From assembly GCF_057098645.1 (NCBI RefSeq), contig NZ_CM169472.1: 64,000 nucleotides of DNA. One strand, 5' to 3'. Shown here one piece after another: positions 31,801 through 34,800 of the stretch. The position numbers were made by a program. Position 1 is the stretch's first letter. Each line of letters begins with the position of its first letter.

Positions 31801-34800
31801 CACCCACAGCTGGTCAGGACGTTCTGCCACGAACTGACGGTTTACGCGGTCGCCTGCGGAAACGGCTTTCCGGCTGACGGTAGTACGGACCTTTTTACCC
31901 CGGAGAACACCGGCAAGTCCCATAACCGCCATGAGACGTGCCACAGTGCATCTGGCCACTCTGATACCTTCCCGTAACAACTGACGCCAGACTTTACGCA
32001 CACCGTATACCTTGTGATTTTCATCGTATACGCGCTGTATCTCTCTCTTCAGCCAGTCATCGCGCTGAGCACGGGCACTGCGTTTATCAGGATGATGTCG
32101 CTGTTGCTGACAGTGGTAATACGTTGACGGGGCAATATGCAGTTCACTGCATACCGGTCCGACCCCGTACTGCTCACGCAGCTTATCCAGCAGCGGCATT
32201 ATTTTTTCCAGAGGCGGTCGAACTCCGCCTTCGCAAAATAAGCGGAAGCCTGGCGAAGGATATCGTTACTGCGGCGCAGTTCACGATTTTCACGTTCCAG
32301 CTCTTTCAGACGCTGACGTTCAGCGGTGGTGAGTCCACCATCACCACTCCCGGTATCCCGCTCATGCTGACGAACCCACACACGCAGAGTCTCTGGTGTA
32401 CAGCCAATCTTTGGGGCAATGGAACAAATTGCCGCCCATTGTGAGTCATATTCGCCCTGACTTTCCAGAACCATACGAACTGCCCGTTGACGGACCTCGG
32501 GGGAAAAACGTGTATTTTTAGTCATCCTGTTTACCTCTTTCTCAGGGAGTTTAGTCTCCAGGATTCCCGGGGCGGTTCAACCGGAAATCAAAACAACTGA
32601 CGGCGAGGTGACTTGTGTTGGTCGCCAGAAAATGAAATTAGGCAGCAAACCACTTATTTGAGGTGAGATATGACAAAATCATGGAGCGTACCTTTTCCTG
32701 AATCAGAAACTGAACATGATGGAATGCCTGTTTTCTGGAGATTCCAGGCGACAGTTGAAGAAGATGGGATAAAAATATTCGCACTTCAATATATAGCTTT
32801 TCATCAGACAGAGCATTATGCATGGTTGGTTCCTGCGCATTGGATTGTTAATTTTAAACCAGCACCAAATCAGTGGTTACAGGAATGGAAACAAAGGAGA
32901 AATAGATATGCAATTAAGAAAGTAGCAAAAAATGCAGAAAGATCTTTTGCATTCCCAACGAAGAAACTTGCCATTGAAAGTTTATTGCGCCGGAAGAAAT
33001 ACCATTTAATGAGAATCAAACAAGATTTGGCTGTTGTATCAACTCTTGTTGATGGTATGAAGAATATTGATACATCAACACCAGATATTGAATATAACTT
33101 TGGACACAACCAAGAAACAGAAAATTGGGTATTTTATTAGTACGAATAAGCACTGTGTATTCATTCCAACGAGTGAATACACGGAGCAATGTCGCTCGTA
33201 ACTAAACAGGAGCCGACTTGTTCTGATTATTGGAAATCTTCTTTGCCCTCCAATGTGAGGGCGATTTTTTATCTGTGAGGATATGAACAGATGTCAAACA
33301 TCAAAAAATACATCATTGATTACGACTGGAAAGCATCAATAGAAATTGAAATCGACCATGACGTAATGACAGAGGAAAAACTTCACCAGATTAATAATTT
33401 CTGGTCAGACTCTGAATACCGACTCAATAAACACGGCTCTGTATTAAATGCTGTATTAATCATGCTGGCGCAACATGCTCTGCTTATAGCAATTTCAAGC
33501 GACTTAAATGCATATGGTGTTGTGTGTGAGTTCGACTGGAATGATGGAAATGGTCAGGAAGGATGGCCTTCAATGGATGGTAGCGAAGGAATAAGAATTA
33601 CCGATATCGATACATCAGGAATATTTGATTCAGATGATATGACTATCAAGGCCGCCTGAGTGCGGCTTTACCGCATACCAATAACGCTTCACTCGAGGCG
33701 TTTTTCGTTATGTATAAATAAGGAGCACACCATGCAATATGCCATTGCAGGGTGGCCTGTTGCTGGCTGCCCTTCCGAATCTTTACTTGAACGAATCACC
33801 CGTAAATTACGTGACGGATGGAAACGCCTTATCGACATACTTAATCAGCCAGGAGTCCCAAAGAATGGATCAAACACTTATGGCTATCCAGACTAAATTC
33901 ACTATCGCCACTTTTATTGGCGATGAAAAGATGTTTCGTGAAGCCGTCGACGCTTATAAAAAATGGATATTAATGCTGAAACTGAGATCAAGCAAAAGCA
34001 TTCACTAACCCCATTTCCTGTTTTCCTAATCAGCCTGGCATTTCGCGGGCGATATTTTCACAGCCATTTTCAGGAGTTCAGCCATGAACGCTTATTACAT
34101 TCAGGATCGTCTTGAGGCTCAGAGCTGGGCGCGTCACTACCAGCAGATCGCCCGTGAAGAGAAAGAGGCAGAACTGGCAGACGACATGGAAAAAGGCCTG
34201 CCCCAGCACCTGTTTGAATCGCTATGCATCGATCATTTGCAACGCCACGGGGCCAGCAAAAAAGCCATTACCCGTGCGTTTGATGACGATGTTGAGTTTC
34301 AGGAGCGCATGGCAGAACACATCCGGTACATGGTTGAAACCATTGCTCACCATCAGGTTGATATTGATTCAGAGGTATAAAACGGATGAGTACAGCACTC
34401 GCAACGCTGGCTGGGAAGCTGGCTGAACGTGTCGGCATGGATTCTGTCGACCCACAGGAACTGATCACCACTCTTCGCCAGACGGCATTTAAAGGCGATG
34501 CCAGCGATGCGCAGTTCATCGCATTGTTGATCGTCGCCAACCAGTACGGCCTTAATCCGTGGACGAAAGAAATTTACGCCTTCCCTGATAAGCAGAACGG
34601 CATCGTTCCGGTGGTGGGCGTTGATGGCTGGTCCCGCATCATCAATGAAAACCAGCAGTTTGATGGCATGGACTTTGAGCAGGACAATGAATCCTGTACA
34701 TGCCGGATTTACCGCAAGGACCGTAATCATCCGATCTGCGTTACCGAATGGATGGATGAATGCCGCCGCGAACCATTCAAAACTCGCGAAGGCAGAGAAA

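Follow-up and report, generated by a model that had tools for sequence, protein, structure and literature searches.

Which function is served by the small open reading frame (ORF) of 156 amino acids (aa) that stands between an insertion sequence, IS629, and the ea10-to-exonuclease genes of a lambdoid prophage remnant in NZ_CM169472.1 (assembly GCF_057098645.1)? We analysed 64,000 nucleotides (nt) of this contig, which we call the window and to which all window coordinates refer. The ORF turned out to be a copy of a gene that intact lambdoid phages carry directly downstream of N. The best account that we can give of it, with a probability of roughly one half, is that of a dispensable, immediate-early accessory protein which serves the lytic programme and probably binds nucleic acid. 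The gene and its immediate sequence are composed as follows.

32670..33140, plus strand: the 156-aa gene, ATG start, intact; N-terminus of the product MTKSWSVPFPESETEHDGMPVFWRFQ
32654..32669, plus strand: ribosome-binding region TTTGAGGTGAGAT
33154..33184, plus strand: 13-bp RNA hairpin directly 3' of the ORF stop codon
33243..33272, plus strand: intrinsic terminator, an 8-bp stem (hairpin 33243-33264) followed by the T run TTTTTTAT

Identity and Coding Reality of the Gene

Judged by sequence, the ORF is virtually certain to be an intact copy of an accessory gene from the early-left region of lambdoid phages, known as gp45 in HK97 and L0079 in 933W (PHROG 1636). Its product is 100% identical to WP_000167595.1, which is annotated as a hypothetical protein, and the identical protein is found as L0079 of 933W and as vb_24B_11c of phi24B. 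The protein is also carried by H-19B, BP-4795, Stx2 phage 86 and dozens of Shiga toxin (Stx) phages of the Stx1a and Stx2a types, and additionally by the BASEL phage Bas106, while HK97 Gp45 matches it at 155/156 residues. The phrog_1636 profile, annotated as being of unknown function, was matched with E = 2.7e-112 over the complete length (residues 1-156 versus profile positions 1-156). The sequence is already public in phage records, always as a hypothetical protein. A first-pass annotation of the window had called the ORF unassigned, which holds for its function, as none can be assigned, and does not hold for its sequence. In HK97, 933W, phi24B and H-19B we find the same protein (99-100%), placed directly after N and followed by the same terminator; the window copy differs from these in that IS629 stands in place of N, nutL and pL and in that the phage is a remnant.

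The features that had been described around the ORF are all present. The Shine-Dalgarno sequence GAGGTGA is strong and ends 3 nt from the ATG, and the TGA within the ribosome-binding region is the stop codon of N in lambda/21-type contexts (8-nt spacing). Downstream follow the terminator hairpin and then, according to the annotation of identical EDL933 DNA, the genes for DUF2528 (Ea10), CIII, Kil, Gam, Bet and the exonuclease. The position was correctly recognised as the ral and sieB slot: in lambda, the interval from N to ea10 holds sieB, orf28 and ral. The 148-nt spacer 3' of the ORF comprises the 13-bp hairpin and the terminator, and it folds considerably better than shuffled sequences do (z = -4.6). 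The hairpin at 33154-33184 contains G-U pairs and lacks a T run; no Rfam family matched it at the gathering threshold, and it could be an element that processes or stabilises the early transcript.

Comparison of the copies indicates that the ORF is a genuine gene under strongly purifying selection. The 84 retrieved loci contain 29 nucleotide alleles with 21 variable sites, all of them third-codon and synonymous in the ORF frame, in a locus sample (80) that was ranked by protein identity. More diverged copies, which do not share this ranking bias, were compared separately (a related lambdoid contig, a Pectobacterium prophage and a Salmonella phage); here the proportion of nonsynonymous differences (pN) is 0.10-0.26, compared with 0.79-0.92 (saturated) for the synonymous ones (pS). 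Moreover, 40 columns are invariant in 20 full-length relatives from Escherichia, Pectobacterium, Cronobacter, Brenneria, Rosenbergiella and metagenomes. Conservation, the absence of which would have counted against the first-pass annotation, is strong, with synonymous-only sites and pN far below pS.

Expression in Intact Phages

The copies in intact phages show how the gene would be expressed. The annotation of phi24B gives the order cI, stk, tRM, nutL, N, the gene, ssb/ea10 and cIII. Our scan of this locus found a pL-like promoter at 3281-3309 and, after it, a sole strong terminator on the plus strand at 4574-4595, just past the gene; the consensus scan gave no promoter-like site between N and the gene. 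HK97 has an annotated terminator at the equivalent place, just past gp45. In 933W, phi24B and HK97 the gene lies directly downstream of N and is followed by the terminator, while the window has kept the terminator and the last 9 codons of N. Across the loci the gene begins 8 or 58 nt after N, and sometimes it is preceded by other small ORFs.

This order of pL, nutL, N, gene, hairpin and terminator, without a promoter of its own, argues that the gene is co-transcribed with N and belongs to the immediate-early class. Transcription and translation of the gene would accompany those of N during the first minutes of infection or induction, and, as the gene sits ahead of the first strong terminator downstream of pL, it would be expressed before antitermination by N is needed. 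The promoter pL is repressed in lysogens, and the gene should be silent in a repressed prophage. We regard both the early timing and this silence as likely, on the grounds of the anatomy, the consensus scans and lambda biology.

The term moron, which the first-pass annotation had used, does not suit such a gene in its usual sense. Although it has its own terminator and a deviant G+C content, by consensus scan it lacks a promoter of its own, both here and in phi24B, and starts 8-58 nt after N. Because the gene is likely co-expressed with N and not from the repressed prophage, both this term and a prophage defence fit poorly.

A Mobile Module in a Variable Slot

The surroundings of the gene are mosaic. 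At least four different N types precede it across the loci, and its 3' neighbours vary between Ea10, a 103-aa ORF, a 185-aa ORF and cIII directly; no neighbour family is conserved across the loci. Sequence identity with the window usually reaches 55-90 nt upstream of the gene and about 120 nt beyond its 3' end, and in most of the loci the terminator travels along. From this extent of identity we conclude that the mobile unit consists of the N-gene tail, the gene, the hairpin and the terminator. The breakpoint of this mosaic module falls within N. A second frame upstream of the gene encodes a fossil N tail of the lambda/21 type (…VTCVGRQKMKLGSKPLI), which travels with the gene. In the window, two overlapping N tails in different frames are found at 32580-32669 (compare 5964-6032 of locus L001), and NCBI annotates the fossil as an incomplete 'regulator'.

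The slot itself accepts other genes. As an alternative cargo, Sakai Sp5 carries an unrelated 83-aa hypothetical gene there (ECs_1180, locus L091, 4721-4972). Since lambda and Sp5 hold other genes in this slot, we take the gene to be dispensable. A further sign of mosaicism is an ATG-initiated stub (MSLVTKQEPTCSDYWKS…) at 33190-33262, which matches the start of a 77-aa ORF found 3' of the gene in L021 and L045, and which is a remnant of another mosaic neighbour.

Searches for Relatives and the Predicted Fold

No search linked the protein to a characterized one. In Pfam, at E <= 10, the ORF product matched only Tmem26 and zf-H2C2 and none of the Ral, Lar or SieB families, and none of the 43 aligned family members contains a Pfam domain. 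NCBIfam gave no match for the ORF product or for ten remote relatives. When the PDB sequences were searched with the protein and with each of two profiles of the family, the matches were at chance level only (reticulocyte-binding protein, PRNC2, UPF0213 and twinfilin). We recognised no known DNA-binding motif in the protein or in the 43 members, and we found no similarity to a known anti-defence fold or family (Ral, Lar, ArdA/B, Ocr). The statement of the first-pass annotation that the protein has no recognisable motif thus withstood sequence, profile and structure-based searches alike.

Two candidate assignments were rejected. A weak PDB match had pointed to a GIY-YIG nuclease, for which one expects GIY and YIG strands about 10 residues apart, the catalytic residues R/E/N and the GIY-YIG fold; the spacing of the strands and the fold do not fit. 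The motif HQTEH was considered as an HExxH motif or as the H-x-T of a 2H phosphoesterase, but H45 and H49 are not kept in the remote relatives and a second H-x-T is missing.

A first AlphaFold model, built with close homologues only, was discarded with a predicted local distance difference test score (pLDDT) of 60.5. With the remote relatives in the alignment, the pLDDT rose to 94.7 and the predicted template modelling score (pTM) was 0.81. In this model the protein is predicted to be a soluble alpha/beta domain with three long beta strands, a fourth strand and a 33-residue helix. In the predicted order, the strands at 19-30, 33-46 and 50-55 are followed by short helices, the fourth strand (83-86) and the long helix (98-130), and the chain ends in a conserved C-terminal tail that is ordered. 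None of the solved structures is similar to the predicted fold. The Foldseek matches in AFDB50 and BFVD, with E-values to 1e-7, are exclusively uncharacterized phage and prophage proteins, with hosts including Pseudomonas, Pantoea, Erwinia, Rhizobium, Sinorhizobium, Delftia, Cellulophaga and Tenacibaculum.

An exhaustive HMMER search yielded remote relatives of 133-155 aa with 24-32% identity, and alignment of the close with the remote group by hhalign gave a probability of 99.3% (E = 4e-20). The remote members correspond to PHROGs 13631, 25384 and 28215, all annotated as being of unknown function, and the superfamily has members in phages of Pseudomonas, Pantoea, Vibrio, Proteus and Salmonella. 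Together with those of Erwinia, Rhizobium and Delftia phages, the remote relatives share with the gene product a like length, the order of secondary-structure elements and the residues G33, E/Q46-T47, K87, A101 and R108-K109; they differ in their low identity (16-32%) and in lacking the N-terminal W-x-V-P-F-P-E-S extension of the close family.

Possible Roles of the Protein

What could such a protein do? It has a mass of 18.6 kDa, an isoelectric point (pI) of 9.07, no cysteine and seven tryptophans. The highest 19-residue Kyte-Doolittle mean is 0.56, so that the protein has no membrane segment and is soluble; here the first-pass annotation, which had set it apart from SieB for this reason, was right. 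Residues 74-120 contain 16 K/R compared with 3 D/E (net +13), while both ends of the protein are acidic. Ten positions carry K or R in 70% or more of the 43 sequences. G33, T47, K87 and A101 are almost invariant; at position 46 the close family has Q, and E is found there in 91% of the remote members. This pattern makes it plausible, at a little short of even odds, that the conserved basic belt 74-120 binds nucleic acid or an acidic or phosphate-rich target in the host.

Several points weigh against our best account, that of an immediate-early accessory protein which serves the lytic programme and probably binds nucleic acid. The immediate-early timing rests on consensus scans, and a weak hairpin inside N or Rho-dependent termination could alter it. 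The lack of any amino-acid change among the sampled loci is a biased count because these loci were ranked by protein identity. The basic belt, which was read from the sequence, is suggestive only. With PADLOC-DB 2.0 we obtained only Cas1_II (E = 0.018 over 45 residues, noise), so that the protein has no match among defence or anti-defence models. No annotated homologue turned up. Finally, literature searches for L0079, vb_24B_11c, PHROG 1636, WP_000167595 and HK97 gp45 gave nothing on the gene.

For an accessory protein of this kind two services within the lytic programme can be considered. The protein might, as a tentative option, act in host takeover and counter-defence; alternatively, and somewhat less probably, it might act in early regulation or DNA handling. 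The neighbourhoods of the remote relatives bear on both. These relatives are the first or second gene of an early operon in L009, L100 and L102, and in L009, Salmonella phage NX263 and a Vibrio phage they hold the first or second place beside the switch region. Others lie at the far operon end, adjoining xis/int, and in large Pseudomonas and Pantoea phages they are placed inside early gene blocks. DNA methyltransferases stand a few genes from the relatives in several of L006, L092, L094, L096, L099 and L101, and Lar and an Acb2/Tad1-hairpin gene were each seen there once. A methyltransferase within about 5 kb was found in roughly 7/22 contexts. L092 contains no tandem paralogues.

One possibility is a dedicated counter-defence factor, for example for restriction evasion, which would be made first in order to shield the entering genome, in a role like that of Ral, Lar or T7 Ocr. 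The slot shared with ral, the likely co-expression with N ahead of the first terminator, and the remote relatives near DNA methyltransferases, Lar or the Acb2/Tad1-hairpin gene in several phages are in line with it. We nevertheless judge it unlikely. Only 2/10 newly fetched loci contained a methyltransferase-like ORF, recognised by motif only, and for this reason we treat the methyltransferase link as a weak lead. Additionally, nothing in the protein resembles Ral, Lar, ArdA/B, Ocr or a known anti-defence fold, and it is basic, unlike an acidic DNA mimic. Lambda Ral is a parallel in genetic terms, being likewise accessory, dispensable, expressed early and located in the N-to-ea10 slot of the pL operon; it has 66 aa compared with 156 aa, and neither Pfam nor PHROG links the gene to the Ral/Lar families. 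T7 Ocr (gene 0.3) is comparable in timing only, as a dispensable protein that is made from the first transcript when the genome enters the cell. Whereas Ocr mimics DNA and is strongly acidic, our protein has a pI of 9.07 and a central segment with +13, and the folds show no similarity.

A function internal to the phage is doubtful to a similar degree. The protein would in this case bind DNA or RNA early on and regulate the choice between lysis and lysogeny, or it would be an accessory factor of replication or recombination, as the conserved basic belt, the position beside the regulators N and cIII, the place at the switch region in L009, NX263 and the Vibrio phage and the adjoining xis/int genes in other phages might suggest. 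Yet the gene is absent from lambda, Sp5 and many lambdoids with the same regulators, its free combination with four or more N types and with many different genes at its 3' side speaks against a fixed partner, and a recognisable DNA-binding motif is lacking.

Finally, a defence or superinfection exclusion expressed from the prophage in the manner of SieB or Rex, which would block incoming phages, is improbable: sieB occupies the slot in lambda, and low G+C (35.7% for the ORF versus 52% for gam-bet-exo) and mosaic mobility are typical of accessory cargo, but there is no promoter-like site between N and the gene at a spacing of 8-58 nt, pL is repressed in lysogens, the protein is soluble without a membrane segment, no PADLOC model matches, and its relatives lie in early blocks of large Pantoea and Pseudomonas phages adjoining methyltransferases. 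SieB of lambda and P22, which shares the genomic slot, is a membrane protein expressed in the lysogen, whereas the product of our gene is predicted to be globular and has no hydrophobic segment, no promoter of its own and no match to the SieB family of Pfam. The proposal of the first-pass annotation, a candidate for defence or anti-defence, therefore gained no result specific to it; PADLOC was negative, and the dependence on pL argues against a defence expressed from the prophage.

We return to the immediate-early accessory protein of the lytic programme. A counter-defence role for it remains on the unlikely side. In its most specific form, the account would describe the gene as the best-conserved enterobacterial member of a widespread superfamily outside Pfam (PHROGs 1636, 13631, 25384 and 28215) with a novel fold, whose product would, together with N, be the first protein that the infecting genome makes and would act through its basic belt as a new counter-defence or host-takeover factor; as a whole we hold this to be rather doubtful. 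The gene travels unchanged through Stx phages (933W, H-19B, phi24B, BP-4795 and many Stx1a phages) and the model phage HK97. If true, a counter-defence or host-takeover role would bear on the spread of Stx phages between E. coli strains, and the gene would bring a new fold into the small group of known immediate-early effectors of phages. Both HK97 and 933W are tractable genetically, and as an experimental target in these phages the family is reasonable and cheap.

The Copy in the Window

For the window itself these considerations have little consequence, as the copy stands orphaned in an element that has decayed. The flanking features are the following.

31270..32579, minus strand: IS629/IS1203 (IS3 family, 1310 bp, complete), ALIL pseudoknot match in Rfam, ends read
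32580..32612, plus strand: 933W-type N remnant, the last 9 codons (RKSKQLTAR) and the stop, abutting IS629, read from the sequence
33291..33659, plus strand: ea10 (DUF2528), a frequent, not obligatory, downstream neighbour of the gene
33719-33777: lambda cIII thermoregulator, Rfam match with 88.5 bits, intact

The two transposase ORFs of IS629 lie on the minus strand and are directed away from the ORF. The triplets flanking IS629 differ (left CCG, right ACC), so that a target-site duplication is missing, and the left flank is unrelated to N. We conclude from the unequal triplets and the unrelated flank that an IS-mediated rearrangement, a deletion or a recombination, has taken place and not a simple insertion. 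The element lacks pL, nutL, cI and nearly all of N, and the earlier description of the position as pL-proximal accordingly fails in the window, where IS629 has taken the place of pL, nutL and almost the whole of N. A consensus scan found no promoter-like site on the plus strand at 32400-32670. As the promoter region is lost and no such site is present, the copy is probably not expressed; we consider it likely that it is a stranded cargo in a decayed prophage remnant. It is still intact only because the rearrangement is recent. None of 5,426 complete E. coli genomes has the exact arrangement of the window, and the junction occurs in no fetched locus. An apparent junction of IS1203 with the gene in the O157:H7 strain NE 1169-1 proved to be an artefact of joined BLAST pieces. 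The cIII thermoregulator has been kept whole, though the remnant has no pL to transcribe cIII.

The element is bounded by tRNA-Arg(CCT) (argW) at 24483-24557 and by dsdC at 39436-40374. It contains a P4-type integrase, effectors, IS629 and, of the lambdoid phage, the early-left segment only. The part to the left of IS629 carries these genes.

24683-25885: P4-type integrase
25985-26680: effector of the XopG/HopH family (NleD-like)
26914-27801: NleH
28619-29638: NleC-like ORF with HEIIH motif
29672-30652: NleB
30829-31230, minus strand: 133-aa ORF between nleB and IS629, no NCBIfam match

The stretch 24483-31230 is a type III effector island at argW, which is fused to the lambdoid remnant.
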